Made by a program: the position numbers and the translations under genes
Shown: piece after piece, positions 17,610-58,369 of the stretch
Layout: each line of letters opens with the position of its first letter
Numbering within the stretch: the stretch's first letter is position 1
The notes under the pieces: model-generated
Seen by the model: the letters and a program-made list of their open reading frames with translations, nothing else
The model's database searches: none
What the model was told of the DNA's origin: nothing
Origin: Gammaproteobacteria bacterium
GTDB lineage: Bacteria; Pseudomonadota; Gammaproteobacteria; GCA-001735895
Assembly: GCA_014382695.1 (NCBI GenBank)
Contig: JACNJF010000194.1
Location: 861 to 64,860 of the forward strand
DNA: 64,000 bases
Direction of reading: 5' to 3'

Positions 17610-17756
17610 AGGGCTTTTATACTCACGATTAAAAAAATACGATAAATTAGATTAATAAATCAGTATAAACTTGTTTTATAGTTCTGTACTAGGCGTCAGA
17701 TTCATATTAATGTAATGTCCAGTTTTTATGTGGTTTTAAGGTAAGAGAGAGCAGCA

Positions 17757-33215: not shown

Positions 33216-33686
33216 ATGAAACTATCAACAAAAGGTCGTTATGCGGTAACTGCGATGATGGATATTGCACTTCACGAAAAAGTAGGTCCTGTTACTTTGG
33301 CCGATATCTCTCAATGTCAGGGCATTTCACTGTCCTACCTGGAACAGTTGTTTTCTAAATTACGTAATAATGGACTGGTGAAAGGTGTCAGAGGTCCTGG
33401 CGGTGGCTATAGACTAGCCAAACCGGCGCATCAAATCTCTGTTGCCGATATCATCGATTCTGTCGATGAAAAGCTGGATCTGACTAAATGTGGTGGTAAG
33501 GGTAATTGTAACAAGGGTGAAAAGTGTTTAACCCACAAACTCTGGTATGACCTGACCTGTGATTTGCATCGTTATCTGGGCGGTATCAAGCTCGATCAAT
33601 ACGTTAACCGTCCTCAGATCAGTGAATTAGTTAAAAAACAGGATGTACAATACGGCAGATTTTTGAATCGCCGTTCGGCAGCCTGA
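33216..33686 (+). CDS. iscR: Fe-S cluster assembly transcriptional regulator IscR (Rrf2 family)
   Basis: Rrf2 HTH at the N-terminus, and the three cluster-ligand Cys in CGGKGNCNKGEKC. Confidence 0.9.
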   Translation: MKLSTKGRYAVTAMMDIALHEKVGPVTLADISQCQGISLSYLEQLFSKLRNNGLVKGVRGPGGGYRLAKPAHQISVADIIDSVDEKLDLTKCGGKGNCNKGEKCLTHKLWYDLTCDLHRYLGGIKLDQYVNRPQISELVKKQDVQYGRFLNRRSAA

Positions 33687-33737
33687 AGGTTGCGATTTAT
33701 AAACCCAATTTAATGATAAAGCTAAAGAGTATTATTG

Positions 33738-34961
33738 ATGAGTAATTTAAGACTTCCAATTTATCTGGATTACAGTGCTACAACGCCAATTGATCAGCGC
33801 GTCGCTGCTAAAATGGCAGAATATCTGACTATAGAGGGTCAGTTTGGTAACCCTGCCTCGCGCAGTCATGCGTTTGGCTGGAAAGCAGAAGAAGCGGTAG
33901 AGCTTGCCCGTAAGCAGGTTGCTGAGCTGGTGAATGCCGATCCACGTGAAATTATCTGGACCAGTGGAGCCACCGAGTCTGATAATCTGGCGATTAAGGG
34001 TGCTGCACACTTTTATAAGAAAAAAGGTAACCATATCATTACTGTTAAAACCGAGCATAAAGCGGTTTTAGATACCACCAGACAACTGGAACGAGAAGGT
34101 TTCGAAGTTACTTATCTGACCCCGGAAGACAATGGCTTGCTGGATCTGGAAAAGCTCAGGGCTGCAATGCGTGATAGCACGATCATTGTTTCTGTGATGC
34201 ATGTTAATAATGAAATCGGTGTGATTCAGGATATCGCCACTATTGGTGAAATATGCCGCGAAAAAGGGATTATTTTTCATGTCGATGCAGCGCAGTCACC
34301 CGGCAAGGTGACGATCGATCTGGCTGAATTGAAGGTTGATCTGATGTCGTTTTCCGGTCATAAGATTTATGGACCAAAAGGTATTGGCGCCCTGTATGTG
34401 AGGCGCAAGCCACGCATCCGTCTGGAAGCCCAGATGCATGGTGGTGGACATGAACGAGGATTGCGCTCTGGAACACTGGCTACCCATCAAATCGTCGGTA
34501 TGGGTGAAGCGTTCCGAATCGCCAAGGAAGAGATGGCGACCGAAAATGAGCGTATCCGTATGCTACGTGATCGGCTGTATAACGGCCTTAACGATATGGA
34601 AGAGGTTTACCTGAATGGTGATCTGGAGCATCGTATTGCCGGCAATCTGAATATCAGTTTTAATTTTGTGGAAGGCGAGTCGCTGATTATGGCTTTACGT
34701 GATCTTGCGGTTTCATCAGGCTCTGCCTGTACTTCTGCCAGTCTGGAGCCATCCTATGTGCTGAGAGCATTAGGACGTAACGATGAGCTGGCGCATAGTT
34801 CCATCCGCTTTACGCTGGGACGCTATACGACGGTTGAAGAAGTGGATTACACCATTGAGCTGGTGAGAAAGGCAGTGACCAAGCTGCGAGAGCTTTCACC
34901 CCTGTGGGATATGTATAAGGCAGGTATAGATTTAAACTCCGTTGAATGGGTTGCCCATTAA
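33738..34961 (+). CDS. iscS: cysteine desulfurase IscS
   Basis: Near-identity to E. coli IscS over long stretches ([56 protein letters not shown]). Confidence 0.97.
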
Positions 34962-34985
34962 CGCAAAACTATTGAGGTAATCGAA

Positions 34986-35363
34986 ATGGCATATAGTGAA
35001 AAAGTACTGGATCATTATGAGAATCCGCGCAACGTCGGCGTAATCGATGAAGATGACAGTGTAGGCACCGGTATGGTTGGTGCTCCTGCCTGTGGTGATG
35101 TGATGAAGCTACAGATCAAGGTTAGTAAAGATGGCATTATTGAAGATGCTAAATTTAAAACCTATGGCTGTGGTTCAGCGATTGCATCCAGCTCGCTGGT
35201 AACCGAATGGGTAAAGGGTAAAACCCTGGATCAGGCGGCAGAAATCAAAAATACCCATATTGCTGAAGAGCTGGCCTTACCACCGGTTAAGATCCATTGC
35301 TCGGTACTGGCAGAAGATGCGATTGCTGCTGCAATCTCCAACTACCGACAGAAACATCAGTAA
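34986..35363 (+). CDS. iscU: Fe-S cluster scaffold IscU
   Basis: MAYSEKVLDHYENPRNVG, the conserved Cys residues, and the LPPVK motif. Confidence 0.97.
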   Translation: MAYSEKVLDHYENPRNVGVIDEDDSVGTGMVGAPACGDVMKLQIKVSKDGIIEDAKFKTYGCGSAIASSSLVTEWVKGKTLDQAAEIKNTHIAEELALPPVKIHCSVLAEDAIAAAISNYRQKHQ

Positions 35364-35611: not shown

Positions 35612-36166
35612 TTAGAGTGTAGTGTTTCCTGCGGGCCCGATATTCATTCCTATCGACAGTCGATAGTGCTCGGATCTGTTTTCAGTGACACGATGGGGAG
35701 TCGCGGGGTCAAAAAAGATGAAATTCCCGCTAACTGGTTTGATGACGATGCTCTGTTCTGGTGTTTCGAGTACCAGGTCACCCGAATTTTCAGGCACCGA
35801 CAGATAGATAACCCCGGAAATTAATTCGTCAAAATCATCATGTCGATGCAGTGTTGTGACATGCCCGGGTTGCATCAGGTTGAACCAGTAGCCGATCTTT
35901 AACTCATCTGTGCACATGCCAAGTAGTTCTGCACAGTAGCCCAGGCTTTCTTCGAGTAGCCTTTCTAAATCGGTATTTTGAATGGTTTTCAGATAGATAT
36001 TTTCAAACCGTTGATGAAAATAATGGGTCTTTTTGAGGTTATTAGCATTCTGCTCCAGCTGTTGCTGCAGGTAGCGATCGATAGCACTAAGCTGGGAGGC
36101 GCTTAACTGGCTGATTCGCCGGATATAGGGGGTTTGGCTAAATAATCTCGGTGTGACGAGTGACAC
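35612..36166 (-). CDS. putative 2OG-Fe(II) oxygenase superfamily protein
   Basis: A His/Asp pair in HRHDDFDE and a distal His in ATPHRV, consistent with the double-stranded beta-helix facial triad. Confidence 0.55.
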   Translation of the reverse strand: MSLVTPRLFSQTPYIRRISQLSASQLSAIDRYLQQQLEQNANNLKKTHYFHQRFENIYLKTIQNTDLERLLEESLGYCAELLGMCTDELKIGYWFNLMQPGHVTTLHRHDDFDELISGVIYLSVPENSGDLVLETPEQSIVIKPVSGNFIFFDPATPHRVTENRSEHYRLSIGMNIGPAGNTTL

Positions 36167-36239: not shown

Positions 36240-36431
36240 TTACTTCCAGTTTTCGAAGTTATCCGTTGATTTTTCCTGACCATCTTCGTAACCAGCAGAA
36301 TAGGCATCGTTAACCTGTTGCTCTTCTCTTTCCGGATGACCCAGGTAACCACCCTGCCAGCCGATTATGTATTGTTCCTGTAAACCCATTTCTTCCATTT
36401 TAGTCGTTGCATCACGATAAGCTTGATCCAT
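36240..36431 (-). CDS. hypothetical small acidic protein (63 aa)
   Basis: ORF with a downstream hairpin (gcgggtcag...ctggcccgc) on the same strand. Confidence 0.4.
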   Translation of the reverse strand: MDQAYRDATTKMEEMGLQEQYIIGWQGGYLGHPEREEQQVNDAYSAGYEDGQEKSTDNFENWK

Positions 36432-36656
36432 AACATTCTCCTCAAATTCAGACGATAAAAAAAGATTATTTGGCGCTGTAGCGCACTCGTAAGAATTGCC
36501 ACAGGCCGAAAAATGTGAGTATTTTACTAGAAAAAACGCAGTTTATAATATCTCTATTGGGAGTATGCGTGGATTTACGTCCCATCAGGGATATTCGAAT
36601 AATAATGAATAATGATTATTATTATCAACAGTTTATTTATCAGGAGTATATATTTG

Positions 36657-37082
36657 ATGACTACCGATGCTGATATGAATTTTATTAGTGGTATGTCGGC
36701 CTTTGAATCTAAAGAGTTCATCCGCGCCGTACAGTTTTTACTACCCTTTGCCGAAAAAGGTGACCCGGATGCCCAGCACCGTGTTGCTATCATGTACCAA
36801 AATGGTCTGGGCATGGTGAAAAAGGAAGCACTGGCTTTCAAGTGGATGAAAGCGGCCGCTGACCAGGGCCATGCGGTTGCACAGCATGGACTCGGGTTTA
36901 TGTATATGGATGGCGATTGTGTTGAAAAGGATGGCGCCAAAGCGGTTGAATGGTTTAGCAAGGCTGCCGATCAGGGGCTGGTCGGCTCGATGACGACACT
37001 TGCCATGATGTATGAATCTGGTGATGGGATTGAGAAAGACCCAGAGAAAGCAAAAGAACTTTACGCGAAGGCGGGGTTTTAA
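36657..37082 (+). CDS. Sel1-repeat (TPR-like) protein
   Basis: Three Sel1-like repeats (AQHRVAIMYQNGLG, AQHGLGFMYMDGD, LAMMYESGDG). SD CAGGAG lies upstream of the 36657 ATG. The track start at 36612 lies inside an AT-rich repeat. The stop overlaps the next start (TAATG). Confidence 0.75.
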   Translation: MTTDADMNFISGMSAFESKEFIRAVQFLLPFAEKGDPDAQHRVAIMYQNGLGMVKKEALAFKWMKAAADQGHAVAQHGLGFMYMDGDCVEKDGAKAVEWFSKAADQGLVGSMTTLAMMYESGDGIEKDPEKAKELYAKAGF

Positions 37083-38125
37083 TGCGTCCTGCGTTTTTGT
37101 CCAAAGTTCTGGAAGAAGAACTACTGGGAACGCTTAAAGGTCATCACACACCGGTGATGGTATGGGGCCCGCCAGGGGTTGGCAAATCACAGATCGTGCT
37201 GCAGATTGGGCAAACCCATAAGCTGCCGGTGATCGATATCCGGCTATCTCAGATGGAACCGAGCGATTTGCGCGGTATCCCGTTTAAACAGGGCAGTAAG
37301 GTTGAATGGGCGGTACCTTCGATGTTGCCCGATGCTAAAACCCATGGCAGTTCAGGCATTCTGTTTCTGGATGAAATAAATTCGGCAGCCCCTTCGGTGT
37401 CAGCAGCGGCCTATCAGCTTATCCTGGATCGCCGACTGGGGAACTATGAAGTACCGCAGGGCTGGGCCATCTTTGCTGCCGGCAACCGACAGGGCGATCG
37501 TGGAGTGACCTATGCGATGCCTGCACCACTGGCGAATCGCTTCTCACATTATGAAATCGATCTGCATCTGGATGACTGGGTGGCCTGGGCCTATAAAAAC
37601 GGTATCGATGAACGCATCATCGGTTTTTTACGTTTTCGCCCGGAGTTACTGTTTGATTTTGATCCGGCGCACAACCCGGTCGCTTTTCCATCACCGCGTT
37701 CCTGGGAGTTTGCTCATCGCGCATTACAAAAATTTATCGATTACCCGAATCTGTTGCTGGGTTCGTTACAGGCCTGTGTTGGTCCTGCGGCAGGAATCGA
37801 ATGTCATGCGTTTATTGAAAGTCTGGATCAAATGCCGGATCTGGATAAGATTATCAATGGTGAAGACATCAAGGCACCGGATGAAATCGACCTGCAATAT
37901 GCAGTGGCTTCTGCACTGGTAGGCCGTGCGATTCGTGCTCAGTCGAGCGCGCAGTCGGCGACTATCTATGGCAATATCCTTAACTATGCGGGTCGTTTTC
38001 CGCAGCGTGAAATGGGTGTAATGCTGGTATCGGATATGCATCGGGCGATTGGTAATGATCTGTTTGAACTGACCGAATTTGCCAGCTGGGCCGATTCTAT
38101 TGCCGATCTGATTCTGTACGACTGA
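37082..38125 (+). CDS. MoxR-like AAA+ ATPase (AAA_5 family)
   Basis: Walker A GPPGVGKS and Walker B ILFLDEIN. The sensor and arginine region (AAGNRQGDRG) is typical of the CbbQ/NorQ/MoxR clade. Confidence 0.9.
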   Translation: MRPAFLSKVLEEELLGTLKGHHTPVMVWGPPGVGKSQIVLQIGQTHKLPVIDIRLSQMEPSDLRGIPFKQGSKVEWAVPSMLPDAKTHGSSGILFLDEINSAAPSVSAAAYQLILDRRLGNYEVPQGWAIFAAGNRQGDRGVTYAMPAPLANRFSHYEIDLHLDDWVAWAYKNGIDERIIGFLRFRPELLFDFDPAHNPVAFPSPRSWEFAHRALQKFIDYPNLLLGSLQACVGPAAGIECHAFIESLDQMPDLDKIINGEDIKAPDEIDLQYAVASALVGRAIRAQSSAQSATIYGNILNYAGRFPQREMGVMLVSDMHRAIGNDLFELTEFASWADSIADLILYD

Positions 38126-38134
38126 TGACGGTTC

Positions 38135-39505
38135 GTGGATAGTTCACTCGAAGCAATTGAAAACAAATTGAGTGCAGCGCGCACTCGATTGATCCTGGAT
38201 AAACCATTTTTGGGGGCGCTGGTGTTGCGTCTGCCGTTGCAGGCGGCCGATCCGAGCTGGTGTGCAACCACCGGTACCGATGCCCGAAAGTTCTATTACA
38301 ATCCGGCCTATATTCAGGAGCTGCGCGCCGATGAAACCCAGTTTGTGCTGGCACACGAAGCCCTGCATTGCGCGCTGTCGCATTTTGCACGGCGCGGTCA
38401 TCGGGTTAAACACCGCTGGGATATCGCCTGTGATTATGCGATTAATCCGCTGCTGTTAGATGAAGGGCTGAAGCCGCCACCCGGCTCTCTGATGCTGCGT
38501 GAGTACCGTGGGATGACGGCGGAGGAAATCTATCCGATGATTCAGGATAACGATATGTCCGAGTCGCTGGATCAGCATCTGTACGATAAACAGGAGCAAA
38601 CCGAAGGCGGGCAGGATAAACAGCAAAATCCACTCGATCAGAAGGATTCAAAAAGTCAGTCTGGTGGTGAAGGTCAGGTGCAACGGCAGGATCAGTCGAA
38701 TAAACCTGCACAGGGCAATCAGCCTGACGAACCGGCGGATAGCGAAAAAAATCCGCAGCAGGATGAAAGCGCGGGCCTGCCGAGACAGAGCAACGATCAG
38801 TTACCCGGAAAAGCCAGCGGTGCCGCCAGTAAAGACCTGCAAAGCAGTGCACCGCAGCCGTTAACCGAATCAGAAAAATCAGATCTGCATGTGCAGTGGC
38901 AGCAGCGACTGGCTGGTTCGGCACAACAGGCGCAGCAGGCCGGTAAGCTGGGTGAAGGCATCGCGCGCATGATCGATTTTTTTCTGCAGCCGACCTTACC
39001 CTGGCGTGTATTACTGGCACGCCATATGAACAGTATTTCGCGCGACGATTACAGCTACACGCGGCCTTCCAGCCGGCGTGGCGATCCGGCGATCTATCCC
39101 AGCCTGCGTAGCCCGCAGATGAACGTGGTGGTCGCTGTCGATGTCAGTGGTTCGATCGACAAGGATGAGCTGGATGAGTTTGTGGCGGAAGTCGATTCAC
39201 TCAAATCCCAGGTTCGGGCGCGTGTCACTTTTCTGACCTGTGATTCAAAGATAACCGGTGATAGTCCTCAGATTTTTGAAGCCTGGGAGTATTGCCGCCT
39301 GCCGGAACGTATTATGGGTGGAGGCAGCACCGATTTTAACCCGGTGTTTGAGTGGGTCGAACGGCATGATGTGAAGCCGGATCTGCTGGTTTACTTTACC
39401 GACGCGGATGGACGATTCCCTCGCTGTCAGGCGCCTTATCCGGTGATCTGGCTGGTGAAAGGCCGTAAGGCCGTTCCCTGGGGCCAGAGAATTCAATTAA
39501 ATTAA
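38135..39505 (+). CDS. HExxH putative metallopeptidase domain (DUF2201_N-like) plus Q/E-rich linker plus C-terminal VWA domain protein
   Basis: GTG start. HEALHCALSH motif at the N-terminus, a low-complexity acidic and Gln-rich linker of about 120 aa, and a VWA domain with MIDAS-like VAVDVSGSID. Confidence 0.85.
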   Translation: MDSSLEAIENKLSAARTRLILDKPFLGALVLRLPLQAADPSWCATTGTDARKFYYNPAYIQELRADETQFVLAHEALHCALSHFARRGHRVKHRWDIACDYAINPLLLDEGLKPPPGSLMLREYRGMTAEEIYPMIQDNDMSESLDQHLYDKQEQTEGGQDKQQNPLDQKDSKSQSGGEGQVQRQDQSNKPAQGNQPDEPADSEKNPQQDESAGLPRQSNDQLPGKASGAASKDLQSSAPQPLTESEKSDLHVQWQQRLAGSAQQAQQAGKLGEGIARMIDFFLQPTLPWRVLLARHMNSISRDDYSYTRPSSRRGDPAIYPSLRSPQMNVVVAVDVSGSIDKDELDEFVAEVDSLKSQVRARVTFLTCDSKITGDSPQIFEAWEYCRLPERIMGGGSTDFNPVFEWVERHDVKPDLLVYFTDADGRFPRCQAPYPVIWLVKGRKAVPWGQRIQLN

Positions 39506-39513
39506 GCGGTCTT

Positions 39514-40632
39514 ATGCAATTATCCAATGAAGATAACCTGCGCCTGAATGTGTTGCTGGCGCAGGACCTGAAAGCGGTTCGCATCGATGAATCGAAAATG
39601 ATCGTGTATGCCTTATCCAGTCGCGGGGATGCCAAAATCCAGCTCAATCCGACTGGCAAGGATGAAAAATATATCCGCCTGGTAAAAGAGCTGCTGTCGA
39701 ACAAGATTATGGGTTCTCCTGGCGGTTATCCGGTGTATATCAAGCGCTGGACACGCATGGGGCAGGAACGTCAGCAGGAAAGCCTGGCGCAATTGCTGTT
39801 ACTGGGTGAGCCGGAAGCGGTGGTGGCGGTGGTGCATGCTCCAACCCTGAGTACCGATATCGCACGCCATGCGTGGTGGGCATTCCCGTCCTCTGAAAAT
39901 GCGCGCCGGTTACTGGAAAAAAAATCCATCGTGGATTCCGATCTGGCGCGAGAGCTGGTCGAGTTTTTACTCGAGTTCCTGCCGTTTGAGATAGAGCACA
40001 GAGACATGATCGATTCGGTTCGATTATGCCTGCAAAATGACCTGTTAACCGCTGCTGAAATCGACGATCTGTGGAAACGGGCGCGGCGTAAACAGAGTCT
40101 GTATGTCGGGTTTTTACACAGCCAGCCGGATGCTCTGCCGGATCAGGCCGGTGCACATCCGCTGTATAAACCGTTGCAGCAGTCTTTGCAGCCACTGGTC
40201 GAGCAGGGCAATGTGTACGCGATCCAGCTATTGCGCTACCTGTCGGAGCCGGGGCAGGGCTTTCTCAGAACCATCATCCGGGTGCTTGAAAAAGCCGCCA
40301 GCCAGGATACGATCGTTTCACTGTTTCAGGCGCTGTCAAACTATAACCGCCTGTTACCTCTGGCATCGGTGAAGCAGCGCGATATCAAGAATGCGGAGCA
40401 GCTGGTCACGGTATGGATAAGTGGCAAGCAGGATGAGCAACTGGTGAGCTGTCTTGAGGCCTGTGCACAATATAGCGATCAGATTCGAGCCATGCTGGTC
40501 ATATCTCAGCTGGATGAAGTGACGCTGTTTCCGATTTTTGGCCTGACCGATGCACTGGGCACGGTGATGCGCAAAAAACTTGAGCCGGTCACCGGCCCTT
40601 TATTGCAACATATCCGGCAGCTGTTACATTAG
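39514..40632 (+). CDS. hypothetical all-alpha protein (372 aa), fourth gene of the MoxR-VWA operon
   Basis: Separated by 8 nt from the VWA gene. No recognisable motif; predicted helical repeats. Confidence 0.7.
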   Translation: MQLSNEDNLRLNVLLAQDLKAVRIDESKMIVYALSSRGDAKIQLNPTGKDEKYIRLVKELLSNKIMGSPGGYPVYIKRWTRMGQERQQESLAQLLLLGEPEAVVAVVHAPTLSTDIARHAWWAFPSSENARRLLEKKSIVDSDLARELVEFLLEFLPFEIEHRDMIDSVRLCLQNDLLTAAEIDDLWKRARRKQSLYVGFLHSQPDALPDQAGAHPLYKPLQQSLQPLVEQGNVYAIQLLRYLSEPGQGFLRTIIRVLEKAASQDTIVSLFQALSNYNRLLPLASVKQRDIKNAEQLVTVWISGKQDEQLVSCLEACAQYSDQIRAMLVISQLDEVTLFPIFGLTDALGTVMRKKLEPVTGPLLQHIRQLLH

Positions 40633-40731
40633 GCGAAGTTCGTGGAGTGCAACTATCGGTTGCGCGATGTTTTCTATATAATGATTTCCTTATATTAAAT
40701 TTAAGGCCTCCAACTGGAGCGGGTGTATGCG

Positions 40732-42132
40732 ATGAAGTACCTTCCGATATTTTATGAAATCACCGATAAGCCCTGTGTAGTGATCGGAGGCGGGGGGATT
40801 GCCGCACGTAAAGCCGACCTGTTACATCAGGCGGGTGCCAGAGTCAGTGTGATTTCCCCCGAGCTGGGCGATGAAATGTCGCGCTTTCAACAACAGGGTA
40901 AGATTAGCTGGCAGCAACGTAATTTTGAGGCAGGTGATCTGACCGATTATTTTCTGGTGATCGCCGCAACCAGTGACAGGCGGGTCAATGAACAGGCTGC
41001 GGCTGAAGCACTGGTGCTGAAGATTCCCTGTAATGTGGTGGATAACCCAGAGCTATGCAGTTTCATCATGCCTTCGATTATCAACCGGGATCCAGTACAG
41101 ATTGCGGTATCTACCGGTGGCGCATCACCGGTGCTAGCACGTCTGATTCGGACCAATCTGGAAAGCTGTACGCCATCGGCCTATGGCAAGCTGGCGAAGC
41201 TGGTCGAAAAGTATCGTGACCGGGTCAAAAGTACCTTCCCACGCGTGGTCGAGCGTCGTAAATTCTGGGAGTCTATTCTGGAAGGGCCGGTGGCTGAACA
41301 TATCTTTGCCGGTCGTAACGACGATGCCCGACAGTTGATTGAACAACTGATCGACAAGGCCGATTCCAACCCGTCCTATAAAGGTGAAGTGTTTCTGGTA
41401 GGTGCCGGTCCGGGAGACCCCGACCTGCTCACCTTTCGCGCCTTACGCCTGATGCAAAAGGCCGATGTCATCGTCTACGATCGACTGGTTTCGCAACCGA
41501 TCATGGATCTGGTGCGGCGTGACGCGGAGCGCATCTACGCCGGCAAGGAACGCTCCCATCATGCGATACCCCAGGAAAACATCAATCAGTTGCTGGTGCG
41601 GTTGGCCAAAGAAGGCAAACGTGTACTACGCCTGAAAGGTGGCGATAACTTCATTTTCGGACGCGGTGGTGAAGAAATATCTGAATTGATCGATGAAGAT
41701 ATCCCGTTTCAGGTCGTGCCCGGTATAACTGCCGCTTCCGGTTGTACAACCTACGCAGGTATTCCGTTAACCCACCGTGATTATGCGCAGGCCTGTATCT
41801 TTGTGACCGGCCACCTGAAGGATGGCTCCAGTGATCTGAACTGGGATATGTTGTCGCATGCGAATCAAACGGTGGTTTTTTACATGGGGCTGGTGAATGT
41901 TCAGTCGATCTGCGATTCACTCAAACAACATGGCCGAGCCGCCTCTACACCGGCTGCGTTGATCGAAAAAGGTACAACGCCGGAACAACGGGTTTTTATC
42001 GGTGATCTGGATACCTTACCGGGGCTGGTGAACCAGAATAATGTCAAGGCCCCGACCCTGATTGTGGTCGGTGAAGTGGTGGAGTTGCATAAGAAACTGC
42101 ACTGGTTCAAGCCGGGCGAAGAGATTAAATAG
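40732..42132 (+). CDS. cysG: siroheme synthase
   Basis: Three functional regions: precorrin-2 dehydrogenase, sirohydrochlorin ferrochelatase, and uroporphyrinogen-III C-methyltransferase. MKYLPIF...VVIGGGGIAARKADLL matches the E. coli CysG N-terminus, and the SUMT motifs VGAGPGDPDLLT are present. Confidence 0.95.
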   Translation: MKYLPIFYEITDKPCVVIGGGGIAARKADLLHQAGARVSVISPELGDEMSRFQQQGKISWQQRNFEAGDLTDYFLVIAATSDRRVNEQAAAEALVLKIPCNVVDNPELCSFIMPSIINRDPVQIAVSTGGASPVLARLIRTNLESCTPSAYGKLAKLVEKYRDRVKSTFPRVVERRKFWESILEGPVAEHIFAGRNDDARQLIEQLIDKADSNPSYKGEVFLVGAGPGDPDLLTFRALRLMQKADVIVYDRLVSQPIMDLVRRDAERIYAGKERSHHAIPQENINQLLVRLAKEGKRVLRLKGGDNFIFGRGGEEISELIDEDIPFQVVPGITAASGCTTYAGIPLTHRDYAQACIFVTGHLKDGSSDLNWDMLSHANQTVVFYMGLVNVQSICDSLKQHGRAASTPAALIEKGTTPEQRVFIGDLDTLPGLVNQNNVKAPTLIVVGEVVELHKKLHWFKPGEEIK

Positions 42133-42257
42133 CCCCGTAGAGTGTTCCTGTAGGACTATGATGGCAATCATGCTTCTTCCTGAGGTGTATTACCTGGCGT
42201 TGCCAATTACATTGAAAACTAGTTTGTACCATCTCAGTGCTGATTTCCGAGTATCCG

Positions 42258-42812
42258 ATGCTTAAAAGCTATTTTAAAAGGATGTGTGGTCAGGGCGATA
42301 AATGCCGTGAAACTTATACCCCTGTCTGGTTACTGTGGTCAGTTGTGGGGGGATCGCTTGCCATACTGATCATCTCCTTTACCCATCAGTGGATACCGAT
42401 TTCGCATGCCAGCAGTCTGTTTTTGATCGGCTCTTTTGGTGCCTCTTCGGTTCTCATTTTCGGCACACCGAATGTACCCTATGCCCAGCCCAGGAACCTG
42501 CTCGGAGGGCATCTGATCTCTGCCCTGATCGGGGTGACGATCGCTCAATATGTGATTTTACCGATTGAATTTCAGGCGGCGCTGGTGGTTTCGCTGGCGA
42601 TACTGTTTATGCTGCTCACCAATACGGTGCATCCACCCGGCGGGGCAACCGGGCTGATCGCCGTAATCGGACATGATGGAGTGCATGAAATGGGTTACCA
42701 CTTCGTGTTGCAACCAGTACTGTCAGGCCTGTTGATCATGCTGGTGATTGCGTTGCTGTTCAATAATCTGAGTTCTGATTGTGAACGTCATTATCCCCGG
42801 CACTGGTGGTAG
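42258..42812 (+). CDS. HPP-family membrane protein
   Basis: Four TM helices and the signature HPPGGAT. Confidence 0.8.
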   Translation: MLKSYFKRMCGQGDKCRETYTPVWLLWSVVGGSLAILIISFTHQWIPISHASSLFLIGSFGASSVLIFGTPNVPYAQPRNLLGGHLISALIGVTIAQYVILPIEFQAALVVSLAILFMLLTNTVHPPGGATGLIAVIGHDGVHEMGYHFVLQPVLSGLLIMLVIALLFNNLSSDCERHYPRHWW

Positions 42813-42822
42813 GACCGCGTAT

Positions 42823-42855
42823 TAATTGCTAAGTATCCGGACATATTAGCAATTA
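42823..42855. promoter_or_regulatory. perfect 10-bp inverted repeat (taattgctaa-N13-ttagcaatta) upstream of sulP
   Basis: Seen directly in the sequence. It lies about 50 bp upstream of the SulP start, with a -10-like TAGAAT at 42873. Confidence 0.45.
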
Positions 42856-42906
42856 CTTATATATTCGGGTAGAATCCGCGCCTTTTAATCTGTGCAAGGC
42901 GAATCT

Positions 42907-44463
42907 ATGTTCCAACTCACCTGTCCTGGTAAACAATGTGTAAAAAATGATGTGTTATCCGGTCTGACCGTCGCGTTGGCGCTGGTTCCGGAAGCAGTCG
43001 CTTTTGCCTTTGTCGCGGGTGTCGAACCTCTGGTAGGCCTGTACGGCGCCTTTATGATGGGAATCATCACCGCTTTTATCGGCGGTCGTCCCGGTATGAT
43101 TTCTGGAGCCACCGGTGCGATGGCGGTGGTGATGGTGTCGCTGGTTGCTCAGCATGGGGTCGAGTATCTGTTTGCCGCGATTATCGTCACCGGTTTGATC
43201 CAGATGAGTGCCGGTGTGCTGCGCCTGGGCAAGTTTATCCGTCTGGTGCCTTTCCCGGTAATGCTGGGTTTCGTGAATGGTCTCGCCATCGTTATTTTTC
43301 TGGCCCAGTTACAGCAGTTCAAGGTGATTTCAGCCGATGGTGGGCTGGAGTGGATGAGCGGACAGTCATTGTTGATTATGCTGGGTCTGATTGCGCTGAC
43401 CATGGCGATCATCCACTTTTTACCTCGTTTTACGGTTGCTGTTCCAGCTTCTTTGGCTGCCATTATTACAGTGACTCTGCTGGTCATCGGACTGGACCTG
43501 GATAGCCGCTCGGTGGTTGATGTATTGCGTGATATGACGGGCGATATGCAGGCCACGATTGCGGGTGGTCTACCTTCGTTTCATCTACCCGTTGTGCCGT
43601 TTAACTGGGAAACACTGCGGATCATTCTGCCTTACAGCATTATTCTGGCTGGTGTTGGCCTGATTGAGTCGCTGCTGACGCTGAATCTGGTGGATGATCT
43701 GACCGAAACCCGTGGGCGTGGTAATCAGGAGTGTGTCGGGCAGGGAATCGGTAATACCGTCAATGGCCTGTTTGGCGGAATGGGCGGCTGTGCCATGATC
43801 GGACAGTCCATGATCAATATCAATTCGGGAGGCAAGGGCCGCCTGTCAGGCATCAGCGCGGCGCTGTTTCTGCTGGGATTTATTCTGTTCGCTTCCGGCC
43901 TGATCGAAATCATCCCGGTCGCAGCGCTGGTCGGGGTGATGTTCATGGTGGTGCTTGGCACCTTTGAATGGGCCACCTTTCGCATGATCGGTAAAGTGCC
44001 GTTGGCGGATATTCTGATTACCATTCTGGTTGCGGCTGTCACCGTTATATCGGATCTGGCGATCGCCGTTATCGTCGGCGTCATCGTGTCGGCACTGGTA
44101 TTTGCCTGGGAGCATGCCAAGCACATGAACGCGAAGTCTTTTATCGATGAAAATGGCAGTAAAATCTATGAGCTAAACGGGCCGCTGTTCTTTGGTTCGG
44201 TGCATGCCTTTCATGAACTGTTTAATCCACGCGAAGACCCGGATGATGTAATCATCGATTTTTATAATTCACGGGTTGCCGATCATTCCGGCATCGAAGC
44301 CATCGATAGTCTGGCTGAGCGTTATCAGCGTAACGGTAAAACACTGCATCTCAAGCATCTGAGCGAAGAATGCAAGCTGCTGCTACATACGGCCGGAAAC
44401 CTGGTAGAAGTGAATGTAATGGAAGATCCGGTATACCATGTGGCGGATGATCTGCTGGATTAG
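42907..44463 (+). CDS. SulP-family sulfate/anion transporter with C-terminal STAS domain
   Basis: Signature region [18 protein letters not shown], multiple TM helices, and a STAS domain at the C-terminus. Confidence 0.9.
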
Positions 44464-46001: not shown

Positions 46002-46057
46002 TGGAGTGCTGGCTATTCGTCAAGCATGACGAGTAGCCATTGACTCTGGTGACCCGG

Positions 46058-46843
46058 ATGAATCTTCAATTACAACTTGCCCTTCAGGTTTTGCTGCTAC
46101 CGCTGGTACTGTCTTTTGTGGTGTGGCATGCGGGCTTAAAAAGTCATCGATTTAACCTGCTAGCATTGTTTCTAATCTGGGTTATCAGTTTTGTGTGGAT
46201 AAAAGGCATGCCAGCTTTTCCACCTGCAGAAGCGGTAGAGTGGGTGGTATTAATCGGCCTGCTGTATGCCATTATCAGTATCAGCTTTAAATCTGCCGTC
46301 ATTCCATTGCTGCTGAATGCCGCCATTTTGTTGCTTGGAATTGTAATCTTGACCTGGCCGGTACTGATCCGTGCTTCAGACCCACAGTTTTTTTTAGAAC
46401 TCTTTTTGTTTGCTTCACTCGGAATAATAATACCCCTCCTCTTGAAACGCGCTTCTCCTTCCAGTCCAGCTTTAACAGTGGGAATCAGCAATGCTGGTCT
46501 CGCTGCGATATCTGGGCTGGGTGGGAGTCTTTTAATTGGACAACTGGCTGGGGTCGCGGCCTCGTTGCTGGGTGCTTTTATACTGTATGAGCTGCTTTCA
46601 AAACTGCACAATTCTGAATTACCACCTCGATCCCTTAATCTGATGGTGAACCTGCATATCTGGCTTGCGCTAATCGCTAGAGTATATGCGGAAGTGGCAC
46701 TTATTCCCGTTGTACTGGTTAGTCTGTCGTTGTTGTTTGGTTTGACCGTTCGCTGGCGCTACGCCTCTGTAGTGTCGTTACTGTTGAGTTTGGGAGCTTT
46801 GGGCTGGTTGTTAGCGACCAGCGATAACTCCAGCTATTACTAG
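46058..46843 (+). CDS. hypothetical polytopic membrane protein
   Basis: At least 7 predicted TM helices and no motif. The track start is at 46040. Confidence 0.5.
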   Translation: MNLQLQLALQVLLLPLVLSFVVWHAGLKSHRFNLLALFLIWVISFVWIKGMPAFPPAEAVEWVVLIGLLYAIISISFKSAVIPLLLNAAILLLGIVILTWPVLIRASDPQFFLELFLFASLGIIIPLLLKRASPSSPALTVGISNAGLAAISGLGGSLLIGQLAGVAASLLGAFILYELLSKLHNSELPPRSLNLMVNLHIWLALIARVYAEVALIPVVLVSLSLLFGLTVRWRYASVVSLLLSLGALGWLLATSDNSSYY

Positions 46844-52610: not shown

Positions 52611-53771
52611 TCATGCTGGCCAGTATTCCGTCTGTATGGATTCTCCTAAATCGGCATCGATCAGACGCTGTCTGACTTCGAGCAGTTTTTTAATTAATGC
52701 TGGTTCCGCCTTCTCATAGGCGGCTGCATCCGGCGCACGCTTAACAACCACGCCGAGTAATTCTGTAATCGCATTGCCTATCGAGTTCTGGCTGATGGTG
52801 ACGACCCATTTGCCACTATCGTTACGATAGATAAGCTGCTTGAAAGCCGGCTGCCAGCGTATCGCGTTGGCATATTGCGCGTTTTTAATGCACTGGTCAC
52901 GTACAATCTTGGCGGTGCTCAAAAAATCATTATTAAAGAGCAGCTTTTCTGTTACCTGTTGCGGGAAATTGACATTTTTTGGGATGGCAGCATTGCGCGT
53001 TGAAACCTGGCTGAAAAAAGTGCGGTAAAAATCGATAAACCCTTTTAGAATGATATCGTACTCTTGCCAGAATTTAACCTCCTTTATGGAATCCAGACCA
53101 CCACTAATCTCCCAGCAGGGAAGTCCCTGCGGGTAACCGGTCAACATCAGCTGCGACGAATCGCCAGTCATCGGTTTTAGTATTTCCAGCTCCAGGGTGT
53201 CGAAAAAAGCACAATAGGCATCATGCATATAGCTTTGAAACAGACTGTGCTGGCCACCATCGGTGAGGTTTGGGTTGTTAGTTTCAGCCAGCGGAGCATC
53301 ACGCAGTTGCTGTTTATCGAATACGATGAAATGATTGTGCAGCATGCGGATGCTGGGAACTCCAGCGGAGGTCAGCGGCCAGGTTGCATCCAGACTGGCT
53401 TCACCACACAGCAGCAGATGATTTTTCGGGTTGGGGAAAATCTCGTGCATGTAGCTGATCAGAATCTGGTTCATGCGGTTCCAGACATTGCGTACATTTT
53501 CCGGTACCTGAGTGCGCCTTACCGGACGACCCAGCGGATCCAGTATAACCTTGGATGTGTTGTAAATGATGGAGGCGTCGAATACATTGGAGTGTCCCAG
53601 CGCCTTCCGATACATTAACAGGTTTTCATCGTTGCGTAACAGACCGTTGTTATGCTCAAGATCATTCAGGTTTTCTGTGCTGTTGAAAAATTCATTCGGT
53701 TTCATACCTTCTGGCACATCCAGTGGAATGGGCCGGAATGGCGTGGTTATTTCTCTTGGTCCGGTGGTCAT
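52611..53771 (-). CDS. hypothetical protein (386 aa), no recognisable family
   Basis: Long ORF with coding-like composition. Contains LHNHFIVF, a possible HxHxx histidine motif. Monocistronic apart from the small downstream ORF. Confidence 0.7.
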   Translation of the reverse strand: MTTGPREITTPFRPIPLDVPEGMKPNEFFNSTENLNDLEHNNGLLRNDENLLMYRKALGHSNVFDASIIYNTSKVILDPLGRPVRRTQVPENVRNVWNRMNQILISYMHEIFPNPKNHLLLCGEASLDATWPLTSAGVPSIRMLHNHFIVFDKQQLRDAPLAETNNPNLTDGGQHSLFQSYMHDAYCAFFDTLELEILKPMTGDSSQLMLTGYPQGLPCWEISGGLDSIKEVKFWQEYDIILKGFIDFYRTFFSQVSTRNAAIPKNVNFPQQVTEKLLFNNDFLSTAKIVRDQCIKNAQYANAIRWQPAFKQLIYRNDSGKWVVTISQNSIGNAITELLGVVVKRAPDAAAYEKAEPALIKKLLEVRQRLIDADLGESIQTEYWPA

Positions 53772-56785: not shown

Positions 56786-58369
56786 CTAGTTTTTAATCAG
56801 CTTCAGAACATCACTGTTTGAGATTAAGGCTATTGGCTGAAAGTTGATGTAACGCGGCATCTTGTTGAGCGTTTCGGTAACCTGAGCCTGGTCATCGAAC
56901 TGACCGCCGTAGATCAGGTTGTATTGATCTTTATCATCGATGAAGTAAGCCAGCTCCTGGGTAAAGTAGTGATTGTAACGTTGCGCTATTTCAAACAGTT
57001 CCTGCTTTTTGGCAACCGTGGCAACCTTGATGGAATACTTGTCAGGATTCAGTTTGACCAGCCATTGTGACCCATGAATGGTATTCTTCGAGCCAAAGTT
57101 ATACAGTGGTGCGAGATATTGAACGCGCCCATCCAGGCTTTCGACTTCATCGTTCATTGCTTTCATATCCTGCTGGATCAGCTGGGTTTTTTCCTGCAAA
57201 TCCTGTTGAACCTGATTCAGGTTTTTCTGTAACTCGATGATTTCAGAGTAAAATACCTGCGATGCCATCTGCTCATCCTGCACTCGACTCTCCAGCTGTG
57301 TGACCTGTTCGTTGATGACTTCATTATGCTGAACGGTAACCGCCTGTTGCGTATCACGTTGATATTCTGCGTAAAAAAAGATGGCGATCACGGCCAGCAA
57401 TAACAGTAAACTCGATGCCGCCAGTGCTTTGAAATGCTTTCTCTCCAGACTTGCCAGTGCCAGCAGGGTACGCGTCAGGGAACCGGTTTTGTCACTCAGG
57501 GTATCGATCTGTCCCTGTTGTTCGATATTCTGTTGCTGCAGACGCGCGGTATGTAATTCGAGTGCCTCCACATCTCCAGACAGCTTGCTGGTCAGTATAT
57601 CCAGGGTGTCGGTGGAGTCTTTCAGTGTTTCACTGTCTTCGATCAGTTTGGCAGAAACCGCTTCCAGAGAAGCGGCACGCTTTTCCAGTGCTGCATCGAC
57701 GCTTTGCATCAGCAGCATTTTTGCTTTCTGGCTATCAATCGCTTTATCAGCGGACTTTATCTTGCTGTCCAGCGTATCATCACGCTGTTGAGTCGACTGA
57801 GCGAGTTGCTCTAGTTCAGCGATAATTTTTACTTCCAGTGTAGTAATCGCCTTGCTGTTATCTTTGATGCTTTTGTTCAATTTGGTGCTGATTGTCGATA
57901 CTTTTTTGGATAAAGTTTCGGCACGCGCAATCAGATCCACATGCTGCTGTCTAAATTCGACATTGACTTCAGTCTGGCTTTGAATAGCTTCATTCAGCGC
58001 CTTGCTGGATGATTTTTCGAATGATTTGATCGCGCTGTTGACCGCTTTCAAATCGCTGCTCATCTTATTTGACTGCAGGTTTAATTCCTTAAAGGATGTT
58101 TCGATGATTCCTAGCTGCTTATAAGTGTCAGCTACTTTTTCAGACAGTCCTGCTTCCGATGTTGACAGGCGTTCGACATCGGTATTGATCTGTTTGTTGC
58201 TGCTATTGATTTTTTTATTCAGTTTGGCAATGGTAGCTTCCAGAGCCGACATCTGTTTATTAATTTCCATCACCTGTTTTTCCTTGCCGTTTTCCTGCAA
58301 TGGAACCAGATTACCTTTTGCCACAGGGGCATCGCTGACTTTATCCAGCTTTTTATTTTCTTGAGCCAT
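56786..58369 (-). CDS. bitopic coiled-coil protein with C-terminal SPOR domain (DamX-like)
   Basis: Long heptad-rich N-terminal region, one TM helix (LLLLLAVIAIFFYA), and a C-terminal region about 90 aa long with the SPOR-like pattern YSIKVATV...YNLIYGGQF. Confidence 0.6.
   Translation of the reverse strand: MAQENKKLDKVSDAPVAKGNLVPLQENGKEKQVMEINKQMSALEATIAKLNKKINSSNKQINTDVERLSTSEAGLSEKVADTYKQLGIIETSFKELNLQSNKMSSDLKAVNSAIKSFEKSSSKALNEAIQSQTEVNVEFRQQHVDLIARAETLSKKVSTISTKLNKSIKDNSKAITTLEVKIIAELEQLAQSTQQRDDTLDSKIKSADKAIDSQKAKMLLMQSVDAALEKRAASLEAVSAKLIEDSETLKDSTDTLDILTSKLSGDVEALELHTARLQQQNIEQQGQIDTLSDKTGSLTRTLLALASLERKHFKALAASSLLLLLAVIAIFFYAEYQRDTQQAVTVQHNEVINEQVTQLESRVQDEQMASQVFYSEIIELQKNLNQVQQDLQEKTQLIQQDMKAMNDEVESLDGRVQYLAPLYNFGSKNTIHGSQWLVKLNPDKYSIKVATVAKKQELFEIAQRYNHYFTQELAYFIDDKDQYNLIYGGQFDDQAQVTETLNKMPRYINFQPIALISNSDVLKLIKN

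Follow-up and report, generated by a model that had tools for sequence, protein, structure and literature searches.

A four-gene operon in the window (the whole 64,000-nucleotide stretch of DNA that was analysed) encodes a MoxR-type AAA+ ATPase, its obligate VWA/MIDAS partner with a conserved HExxH domain, and two repeat-type, non-enzymatic proteins, DsrS and a small cytoplasmic Sel1-repeat protein. The operon is chromosomal and vertically inherited, and its carriers are sulfur-oxidising Proteobacteria. The coupling of DsrS to an AAA+ ATPase and a VWA protein across many sulfur oxidisers suggests a chaperone that matures or repairs a sulfur-oxidising enzyme. We give an even chance to the more specific reading of a MoxR-VWA remodelling or maturation module in which DsrS and Sel1 act as adaptors and reverse DsrAB, or sirohaem delivery, is the candidate client. 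If true, this would assign a role in an ATP-driven chaperone to DsrS, whose part in bacterial sulfur oxidation has long gone unexplained.

Organization of the operon

The features of the operon and its flanks are as follows.
36240..36431, minus strand: conserved 63-aa ORF (MDQAYRDATTKMEEMG...), divergent from the operon and just 5' of it; function unassigned
36432..36656, no strand: AT-rich divergent intergenic region, presumably carrying the operon promoter
36657..37082, plus strand: Sel1-repeat protein, probably 141 aa (ORF opens at 36612); three Sel1 repeats, no signal peptide
37082..38125, plus strand: MoxR-like AAA+ ATPase (AAA_5, PF07728), 347 aa
37166..37189, plus strand: Walker A GPPGVGKS, residues 29-36 of the translation; conservation at least 90% across 45 sequences
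37358..37378, plus strand: Walker B ILFLDEI, residues 93-99 of the translation; at least 90% conserved
38135..39505, plus strand: DUF2201_N putative metallopeptidase domain, disordered linker and DUF2201 VWA domain, 456 aa; GTG start
38354..38368, plus strand: HExxH motif, H74-E75-A-L-H78; HEALHCA with conservation of at least 90% across 49 sequences
38552..38869, plus strand: variable low-complexity linker, residues 140-245, rich in Gln, Ser and Asp
39140..39154, plus strand: MIDAS DxSxS, D336-V-S338-G-S340; at least 90% conserved
39514..40632, plus strand: DsrS-family protein by sequence, 372 aa; N-terminal α/β domain, conserved loop and helical-repeat body
40647..40665, plus strand: weak terminator-like hairpin, a pattern match only, in the gap of about 100 nt 5' of cysG
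40732..42132, plus strand: cysG (sirohaem synthase), with NAD_binding_7, Sirohm_synth_M, CysG_dimeriser and TP_methylase domains (Pfam)

In the ORF listing of the window, four ORFs on the plus strand (36612-37082, 37082-38125, 38135-39505 and 39514-40632) encode, in order, the Sel1-repeat protein, the AAA_5/MoxR-type ATPase, a DUF2201_N plus DUF2201 protein and the 372-aa DsrS-family protein. The Sel1/ATPase junction is a TAATG with a 1-nt overlap, the ATPase/VWA junction measures 9 nt (TGA tgacggttc GTG) and the VWA/dsrS junction 8 nt (TAA gcggtctt ATG), all of which agrees with the tight, same-strand, four-gene operon described in a first-pass annotation. No in-frame start lies at 36598, the position given there; the Sel1 ORF opens at 36612 and translation probably begins at the ATG at 36657, since orthologues begin at the Met encoded there and an AGGAG lies at 36642-36646. 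The operon promoter presumably lies within 36432..36656, where sigma-70-like matches (36496-36525 and 36574-36603) are matches to consensus only and no Rfam family was found. The divergent 63-aa ORF has no Pfam match, is recovered at E 3e-36 by an HMM from 29 orthologues, and is a syntenic neighbour, found at the equivalent place in most of the related loci. At the other end, the operon may stop at the hairpin or be read through into cysG, whose likely start is the ATG at 40732, though the ORF opens at a GTG at 40723, because of orthologues and a GGAG at 40716-40719. HPP and SulP genes lie 3' of cysG, and Pfam matches on the downstream genes confirm that the operon stands directly upstream of cysG-HPP-SulP.

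The encoded proteins

Pfam matches above the curated cut-offs for Sel1, AAA_5, DUF2201_N and DUF2201 uphold the domain assignments proposed earlier. The three Sel1 repeats (PF08238) score 106.8 bits, and the ATPase matches PF07728 at 36.2 bits (cut-off 22). The Walker, HExxH and MIDAS motifs claimed earlier are all there: Walker A GPPGVGKS and Walker B in the ATPase, and HEALH and DxSGS..GGGxT..FTDA in its partner, each with at least 90% conservation across 44-49 orthologues. The ATPase is 68-90% identical across loci, and its closest solved relatives by sequence are midasin AAA modules and NorQ.

The VWA protein matches PF13203 (DUF2201_N) over residues 9-323 (148.9 bits) and PF09967 (DUF2201) over residues 331-455 (84.1 bits), matches no further Pfam family at E<=0.01, and has no solved relative by sequence search. 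Downstream of HEALHCA, the block RWD.ACDYA.NP is likewise at least 90% conserved, and the remaining MIDAS residues are found in GGGST (395-399) and FTDADG (about 421-426). The linker is Gln-rich and acidic as described, measures about 106 aa (Q 19%, S 12%, D 11%, E 8%), and shows no conservation across orthologues, the length of the protein varying from 376 to 456 aa.

The fourth product had been considered an orphan of no recognisable family, a view refuted by its homologues, which number more than 3,700 and form 519 clusters at 50% identity. On sequence evidence it is a DsrS-family protein, end-to-end 40-49% identical to 14 proteins named "sulfur reduction protein DsrS" at NCBI, and the assignment rests on these named proteins and not on direct alignment to A. 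vinosum Alvin_1265. No model of Pfam, NCBIfam, PADLOC or PHROG matches the protein, and PGAP names it only "hypothetical protein" in the window's own clade. The PGAP name of the family is shared with a Thiocapsa gene beside dsrR and dsrN that has been equated with Alvin_1265 (PMC10892978). DsrS belongs to the dsr cluster dsrABEFHCMKLJOPNRS of Allochromatium and Thiocapsa, beside dsrN and dsrR (PMC3368242, PMC10892978), and its function was described as unresolved (PMC3368242). The predicted structure (pLDDT 94) consists of a small N-terminal α/β domain (residues 1-66), the conserved loop GSPGGYPVYIKRWTRMGQ (67-84) and a helical-repeat body (88-372), with no close solved relative; its three-stranded N-terminal sheet contradicts the earlier description as all-alpha. 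No invariant or near-invariant Cys or His was present in a 64-sequence alignment.

The strictly conserved HExxH points to peptidase activity, for which a pure chaperone would have no use, and this counts against maturation of DsrAB. Regulated proteolysis or quality control is an unlikely though real possibility: the HExxH domain would be an active metallopeptidase tethered to the VWA domain, the AAA+ ATPase would unfold or present substrates, and DsrS and Sel1, as adaptors, would select which Dsr or sirohaem-pathway proteins are processed or degraded, so that the levels of these proteins are set post-translationally. The conservation of HEALHCA and RWD.ACDYA.NP, the strong DUF2201_N match and a SprT-like zincin gene 5' of the ATPase gene in one divergent lineage are consistent with such a role. 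So is the phenotype that Grimm et al. reportedly described in 2011, in which deletion of dsrS in A. vinosum slowed the oxidation of stored sulfur and altered Dsr protein levels post-transcriptionally. However, the literature search found no DUF2201_N protein with demonstrated peptidase activity. To our knowledge the VWA partners in characterised MoxR systems are not peptidases, and we know of no MoxR ATPase that acts as an unfoldase feeding a protease.

Gene-order conservation and carriers

Gene order was followed in 80 species-level loci anchored on DsrS, 76 of them determinable for AAA-VWA-DsrS. The VWA gene was directly 5' of DsrS in this order in 48 of the 80 (48/76 determinable), 36 of these 48 had the full Sel1-AAA-VWA-DsrS layout, and a further 21 of the 80 had Sel1-DsrS without the ATPase pair. 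The Sel1 gene lay directly 5' of AAA or of DsrS in 57/80 loci. When the ATPase was used as the anchor, the VWA gene came next in 61/62 loci and DsrS followed in 33/45. Dozens of species keep the gene order with DsrS just 48-77% identical, the triad was seen down to 31% DsrS identity, and every divergent AAA-VWA lineage examined (L082, L086, L087, L089, L090, L091, L093/94 and L095) has AAA-VWA-DsrS. The arrangement recurs far beyond chance, and the neighbourhood counts bear out a co-inherited unit, contradicting the non-co-occurrence that had been named beforehand as refuting it. The literature search found no paper joining DsrS with MoxR, VWA or DUF2201, in line with the initial remark that Sel1 plus the fourth gene was not a described architecture.

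Adjacency between DsrS and the AAA-VWA pair is not obligatory: about one-third of the species have DsrS without an adjoining AAA-VWA pair, and about one-quarter of close AAA-VWA loci have no adjoining DsrS. Nearly all labelled carriers are Gamma- or Betaproteobacteria that oxidise sulfur, among them Thiohalobacter, Thiohalophilus, Thiogranum, Thiothrix, Ectothiorhodospiraceae, Sulfurirhabdus and the symbionts of Gigantopelta and Solemya. Carriers and DsrS identity point to dissimilatory sulfur oxidation, and not to the assimilation of sulfate or nitrite first suggested.

Linkage to tetrapyrrole genes

A cysG gene was found within 3.5 kb downstream in 15/16 testable Sel1-DsrS loci and in 7/33 full-operon loci. 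The divergent lineages L082, L087, L090 and L095 show cysG linkage as well. A solitary DsrS adjoins hemL, near hemB; elsewhere DsrS adjoins ferrochelatase, and a glutaredoxin gene is also among its neighbours. In the complete genome CP054689, about 7 kb separates the cluster from DsrN-like and DsrR-like genes. Linkage to cysG is recurrent and not accidental, and cofactor or metallocentre maturation is the better supported of the two options offered initially.

The recurrent cysG, hemL, hemB and ferrochelatase neighbours, with cysG, HPP and SulP beside DsrS in the window, would also suit a general control of the tetrapyrrole/sirohaem pathway, which we think quite improbable. The module would then act on CysG or haem-branch enzymes and not on DsrAB, through assembly, activation or flux partitioning, and would serve all sirohaem enzymes, assimilatory sulfite and nitrite reductases included. 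Sirohaem synthesis is near-universal in bacteria, whereas the family, to judge by the labels, is restricted to sulfur oxidisers, and DsrS of Allochromatium and Thiocapsa is listed in the dsr cluster, not in a haem cluster.

Proposed role

The four proteins may form an ATP-driven remodelling or maturation module like other MoxR-VWA pairs, which remodel clients and insert metal cofactors, with NorQ/NorD as an example (PMC9976466, PMC13036017). The ATPase hexamer would supply force, the VWA protein would dock on it and grip the client via its MIDAS site, and DsrS, with the help of Sel1, would recognise or hold the client. An adaptor role for DsrS is suggested by its predicted helical-repeat fold together with the lack of invariant Cys and His. 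The most likely client would be reverse DsrAB, a sirohaem/siroamide-[4Fe-4S] enzyme, or the step delivering sirohaem to it. Either would explain dsrS beside dsrN and dsrR in the dsr cluster, as well as the cysG, glutaredoxin and haem-pathway neighbours elsewhere. The phenotype reportedly seen by Grimm et al. on deleting dsrS in A. vinosum counts for this reading too. Maturation of DsrAB is opposed by the loci in which DsrS and AAA-VWA stand apart, by the equal conservation of DsrS with or without adjoining AAA-VWA, by the weak cysG linkage of full operons outside the window's own clade (the 7/33 above) and by the finding of no dsr or sox genes in the 64-kb window.

Comparison with known systems

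Class I chelatases (CobNST, BchHID) likewise have genes for an AAA+ ATPase and a VWA/MIDAS subunit beside tetrapyrrole biosynthesis genes. A chelatase-like machine on the model of CobS/CobT or BchI/BchD, with DsrS binding the tetrapyrrole and metal inserted into a sirohaem precursor, would fit the proximity of the ATPase gene to cysG and the weak ATPase match (E 2e-9) to the phage CobS-type "porphyrin biosynthesis" family phrog_249. It is nevertheless very improbable, as the operon encodes no CobN/BchH-like large subunit, DsrS (372 aa, helical-repeat) has no similarity to such subunits, the VWA protein is of the DUF2201 and not the CobT or BchD family, and CysG already has its own ferrochelatase domain.

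Kaur, Burroughs, Iyer and Aravind (2020, PMC7159879) described ternary systems that combine a MoxR-vWA pair with a conserved third protein in one operon, and distant relatives of both core proteins here occur in phages, so that an NTP-dependent conflict or anti-phage system inserted by chance beside cysG had been an alternative. This is now close to refuted. The operon has DsrS as its third protein and encodes neither VMAP, iSTAND, FtsH, a beta-propeller nor any effector domain. PADLOC matches were marginal AAA ones (E at least 2e-4), with none for the remaining three proteins, and the ATPase scored 17.9 bits with the bpMoxR model, below its cut-off of 27. Base composition is unremarkable, the surrounding genes are core chromosomal genes, and the conserved flanking synteny is vertical and housekeeping, with identities that track species divergence and no association with multicellular lineages.

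N4-like and jumbo phages share the core pair, the ATPase belonging to phrog_1297 (E 1e-92) and the VWA protein to phrog_1314 (E 1e-83), and 526 phage records have a DUF2201 relative. Identity to these phage proteins is at most 33%, however, with no DsrS or Sel1 partner seen in phages and no DsrS relative in IMG/VR viral contigs. Database labels of the phage homologues are inconsistent ("HNH endonuclease", "hydrolase").

DsrS of A. vinosum, a cytoplasmic protein of about 41 kDa, is of the same named family and similar size, and its carriers are sulfur oxidisers; here the gene is the last of a Sel1-MoxR-VWA operon beside cysG and not part of a dsr operon. Close parallels are NorQ/NorD, CbbQ/CbbO, CoxD/CoxE and RavA/ViaA, client-specific maturation or activase chaperones in which an AAA_5/MoxR ATPase gene lies directly 5' of a VWA gene with a complete MIDAS; as in NorQ/NorD-type pairs, the genes are tightly coupled and adjoin metallo-cofactor pathway genes. 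NorQ is among the few solved relatives of the ATPase, which has 347 aa against 268 aa in the solved NorQ chain. In contrast to NorD-type partners, the VWA protein is of the uncharacterised DUF2201 family with an N-terminal HExxH domain, and the operon adds two conserved components, DsrS and Sel1.

DsrS identity of the fourth gene

The last gene of the operon (gene 4), described in the first-pass annotation as an orphan of no recognisable family, belongs to DsrS and is 40–49% identical end to end, over about 370 residues, to 14 proteins named DsrS by NCBI (E 1e-83 to 1e-124). Its product drew no match from Pfam, NCBIfam, PADLOC or PHROGs, even when NCBIfam was run at E≤10 with seven divergent relatives added. 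A first homologue search returned more than 3,700 sequences, with identity still at 52% at rank 120. By exhaustive profile search the family comprised 519 clusters at 50% identity, and with each species represented by a single genome at least 588 carriers were counted. A profile of the most divergent representatives retrieved NCBI and UniRef entries named "sulfur reduction protein DsrS", more of which came up in a third search, and the DsrS family was continuous across the three homologue searches. Cluster members of these relatives were mostly named "hypothetical protein" and one was named DsrS, while the hosts, where labelled, carried the taxon names of sulfur oxidisers. Given this large homologous family, an ORFan or an artefact was rejected.

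The tie to the founding Allochromatium vinosum gene Alvin_1265 is indirect and runs through a shared PGAP product name: a Thiocapsa bogorovii gene listed by dsrR and dsrN has been equated with Alvin_1265 (PMC10892978), and its PGAP product name is that of the named relatives of gene 4. Gene 4 does not close a dsr operon behind dsrN and dsrR, and the 64-kb window contains no dsr genes. Such a position is not strictly defining for DsrS, because dsrS has already been reported at a distance from the dsr cluster in Sulfurifustis, Sulfuricaulis and Thioalkalivibrio. The A. vinosum genome paper gives the gene a promoter of its own and leaves the function of DsrS unresolved (PMC3368242).

Architecture of the operon

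The operon consists of four closely spaced genes:

36612-37082, +, Sel1 ORF, opening ORF of the operon
37082-38125, +, AAA ORF (ATPase)
38135-39505, +, VWA ORF
39514-40632, +, gene 4 (DsrS)

The tight junctions noted at first reading hold, with a TAATG overlap followed by a 9-nt gap with a GTG start and then an 8-nt gap. The operon start that had been set at 36598 had to be abandoned, being out of frame. The true start of Sel1 is most likely ATG 36657, because AGGAG precedes it and orthologues begin there, and the predicted product has 141 aa and no signal peptide. For the downstream cysG the start is probably ATG 40732, not GTG 40723.

Pfam recognised three Sel1 repeats (PF08238) in the first product, at 106.8 bits against a cut-off of 30.7, and AAA_5 (PF07728) in the ATPase, at 36.2 bits against a threshold of 22, whose matches to AAA_3 and bpMoxR were weak and both under their cut-offs. 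MoxR ATPases have been divided into the seven Snider-Houry subfamilies MRP, APE0892, RavA, CGN, APE2220, PA2707 and YehL (PMC3893208). The VWA gene begins 9 nt 3' of the ATPase gene, which places a VWA-domain partner next to it. Its product has DUF2201_N (PF13203; residues 9-323, 148.9 bits) followed by DUF2201 (PF09967; residues 331-455, 84.1 bits), both over the gathering threshold and in the canonical domain order, and the linker of about 106 residues between the two halves is rich in Gln, Ser and Asp and unconserved. Alignment with 44-49 orthologues drawn from the related loci bore out the motifs that had been picked out by eye. Walker A (GPPGVGKS) and Walker B (ILFLDEI) are intact in the ATPase, and the VWA protein has both HExxH (H74-E75-H78 in HEALHCA) and a complete MIDAS (D336/S338/S340 in DxSGS, GGGST for GGGxT, and FTDA), these two across 49 sequences; all are at least 90% conserved. 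The VWA protein belongs with the VWA/metallopeptidase-like proteins of DUF2201, with putative metal binding and peptidase activity.

Other features of the window were recorded alongside. In the part of the window from 35 to 45 kb no Rfam family was found. After iscR-iscS-iscU (33216-35363) there is no iscA-hscBA-fdx but an oppositely oriented 2OG oxygenase gene, which gives the isc cluster of the window a truncated or split appearance. A Cas6 gene (PF09559, E 4e-57) occupies 504-1196 at the window edge, with no direct-repeat array within the first 2.3 kb. Downstream of cysG, at 42237-44463, are an HPP-family membrane protein and a SulP/STAS transporter, a cysG-adjoining pair that recurs only in the closest relatives of the window (loci L001, L002, L005-L007); in a sulfur-oxidising host, this SulP transporter could carry sulfate out of the cell and not into it. 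For five ORFs of 267-527 aa, Pfam gave nothing above the thresholds applied (11381-12769, 46040-46843, 52611-53771, 56786-58369 and 61040-61933).

Genomic neighbourhoods of DsrS and of the ATPase

The association of the four genes was surveyed twice, with DsrS and with the ATPase as the anchor. The DsrS-anchored survey comprised 80 species-level loci searched with HMMs built for each family, and the reverse test comprised 80 metagenome loci with an ATPase 73-89% identical to that of the window.

Gene order at loci anchored on DsrS or on the ATPase
VWA directly upstream of DsrS (AAA too wherever the contig reaches): 48 loci
Full Sel1-AAA-VWA-DsrS order visible: 36 of those 48 loci
Sel1-DsrS, ATPase pair missing: 21 loci
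Neither VWA nor Sel1 directly upstream of DsrS: 7 loci
Upstream side of DsrS cut by contig end: 4 loci
VWA 3' of ATPase: 61/62 testable loci
DsrS following AAA-VWA: 33/45 testable loci
Sel1 directly 5' of ATPase: 33/59 testable loci

From these locus surveys, with VWA so constantly 3' of the ATPase, the AAA-VWA pair is obligate. DsrS usually accompanies the pair but can be separated from it, and Sel1 often joins as a fourth member, remaining with DsrS where AAA-VWA is missing, typically at an intergenic distance of about 8-50 nt. Twelve metagenome loci with an ATPase 73-76% identical to that of the window have AAA-VWA without a downstream DsrS (L104, L115, L116, L124, L133, L134, L139, L144, L149, L170, L171 and L175). 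Three of these (L133, L170 and L175) share the arrangement htpG..hslR..AAA-VWA-adk, in which htpG, hslR and adk were assigned by eye from ORF starts, and in L091, within the same htpG-to-adk frame, DsrS sits between VWA and adk.

The order AAA_5-DUF2201-DsrS was found every time the ATPase pair occurred in look-ups of distant DsrS, including the most divergent one found (31% identical to gene 4), two long metagenome contigs and three further lineages. In the sulfur-oxidising symbiont of Gigantopelta aegis, where NCBI names DsrS, the order is Sel1-AAA-VWA-DsrS-Grx-CysG. The complete genome of Ectothiorhodospiraceae bacterium 2226 (CP054689, locus L095) has the conserved block entire, from 2OG oxygenase through CysG. 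About 7 kb from its Sel1-AAA-VWA-DsrS-Grx-CysG cluster, on the opposite strand at 17337-19090, lie a DsrR-like gene (Fe-S_biosyn, 108 aa) and a DsrN-like gene (CbiA + GATase_3, 476 aa), so that a dsr operon may end near the cluster. On one long-read contig (L088 2777-5904) the two genes that precede DsrS, AAA and VWA, are broken into several frames, which could be pseudogenes or assembly frameshifts.

Genes for tetrapyrrole biosynthesis are found repeatedly close to DsrS. Within 3.5 kb downstream, cysG is present in 15 of the 16 sufficiently long Sel1-DsrS loci, and it lies downstream in 7 of 33 full-operon loci; glutaredoxin is another recurrent neighbour. Solitary DsrS genes have similar company, in the order hemL-DsrS-ccsA/resB with hemB nearby in Sulfurirhabdus autotrophica, and as DsrS-ferrochelatase in relatives of HGW-Gammaproteobacteria-1 (solitary DsrS with tetrapyrrole genes: L081 6708-9155 and 14113-15123; L083 7001-9169). 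This proximity could reflect a general role in the sirohaem pathway, which we nevertheless consider improbable.

Two further elements recur around the operon. A block upstream contains a 2OG-Fe(II) oxygenase, DUF6866, a 189-aa protein of unassigned family and an ORF of about 65 aa (for example L026 1553-4022 and L095 2070-4568), of which the window keeps only the oxygenase and the small ORF:

35612-36166, -, 2OG oxygenase
36240-36431, -, small ORF of 63 aa (MDQAYRDATTKMEEMGLQEQYIIGWQGGYLGHPEREEQ...), E 3e-36 with an HMM from 29 orthologues

The small ORF has no Pfam match, and most of the related loci likewise have it upstream of Sel1 and divergently oriented. Directly 3' of DsrS, and often overlapping it, a protein of about 180 aa without a Pfam match was seen in 32 of the first 87 loci (for example L060 9140-9679, L048 4543-5085 and L095 10142-10687). 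This family, missing from the window, is a candidate fifth component.

Predicted structure of DsrS

An AlphaFold2 model of DsrS, made with a 64-sequence alignment, was confident (pLDDT 94, pTM 0.88). In the model, residues 1-66 form a small N-terminal domain of helix, three strands and helix, residues 67-84 a conserved loop (GSPGGYPVYIKRWTRMGQ) of lower confidence, and the body consists of about 285 residues of helical repeats. A PDB sequence search found no relative for gene 4 or the VWA protein. When DsrS from loci with and without AAA-VWA was compared, no discriminating positions emerged and the same ones were conserved in all layouts, suggesting that genomes without the adjacent pair encode the partners at another locus, or else that DsrS itself performs a core role.

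A possible role in the maturation of DsrAB

The products of the operon fall into known families with conserved motifs, and their genes are inherited together and repeatedly lie near sirohaem or haem biosynthesis genes. That the DsrS system is a chaperone for DsrAB has, in our estimate, an even chance of being right. In a more specific and more tentative version, DsrS would be the subunit recognising the client of a MoxR-VWA AAA+ machine dedicated to loading or repairing the sirohaem/siroamide-[4Fe-4S] centre of rDsrAB (reverse DsrAB). Two published accounts describe client remodelling and metal-cofactor insertion by MoxR-VWA pairs, NorQ/NorD among them (PMC9976466, PMC13036017). By analogy with NorQ/NorD, the ATPase hexamer would be the power source for remodelling, the VWA protein would bridge from the ATPase to the client via its MIDAS, and DsrS and Sel1 would serve as repeat-protein adaptors. 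We infer that the most plausible client would be rDsrAB, or a step that supplies this enzyme with sirohaem/siroamide, because DsrS is named as a dsr gene and in purple sulfur bacteria is listed beside DsrN and DsrR. The former is a sirohaem amidase and the latter is A-type-carrier-like. Deletion of dsrS in A. vinosum reportedly slows sulfur oxidation and alters Dsr protein levels post-transcriptionally. The chaperone model leaves the invariant HExxH of the VWA protein unaccounted for, and for this reason a variant with regulated proteolysis stays alive, unlikely as we hold it to be.

Should the more specific version hold, with DsrS recognising the client, the system would be the first chaperone described as dedicated to the maturation of a sirohaem enzyme, and the function of the last uncharacterised gene in the classical dsr operon would be resolved. 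In the environment, rDsrAB accounts for much of the sulfur oxidation that takes place in sediments, symbioses and oxygen-minimum zones. The position of DsrS as the usual third gene of a MoxR-VWA operon, often by sirohaem synthase, leads to a concrete hypothesis of ATP-driven assembly, repair or turnover of an enzyme or cofactor, which is genetically and biochemically testable. It also provides a first physiological context for the widespread DUF2201 VWA/HExxH family, present also in hundreds of phage genomes. In the literature searched, no paper describes DsrS as the typical third gene of a DUF2201-type MoxR-VWA operon or its recurrent company of Sel1, glutaredoxin and CysG.

Comparison with known systems

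A conflict or defence system, the other role that the first-pass annotation had considered, is very unlikely, bordering on negligible. PADLOC gave marginal hits only, to the ATPase, bpMoxR was below threshold, and an IMG/VR scan returned zero DsrS relatives. The base composition of the region is ordinary, the surroundings are core genes (trxB, ftsK, lolA, rarA, sdhAB, iscRSU, fumC and slt) and the flanking synteny is kept across species. The MoxR-vWA ternary systems of Kaur et al. 2020 (PMC7159879) have a VMAP, iSTAND, FtsH or beta-propeller third component together with effector domains, whereas gene 4 has none of these and no effector or VMAP/iSTAND-type component was detected in the operon.

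N4-like and jumbo phages commonly carry remote homologues, at most 33% identical, of both the ATPase and the VWA protein. The labels of phage DUF2201 proteins are inconsistent ("HNH endonuclease", "hydrolase", "Zn-dependent hydrolase" and "metalloprotease"; for example LC727697.1 76298-77482, OZ195920.1 and NC_041878.1), and the PHROG label "HNH endonuclease" on phrog_1314 looks like an annotation error.

A role as a class I chelatase (CobNST/BchHID) was rejected and is highly improbable. Such chelatases have a CobN/BchH large subunit and a CobT- or BchD-type VWA protein, neither of which is encoded by the operon or its conserved neighbourhood, and CysG carries a chelatase domain of its own. 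All four families of the operon are already catalogued, and MoxR-VWA chaperones, to which NorQ/NorD belong, are an established kind.
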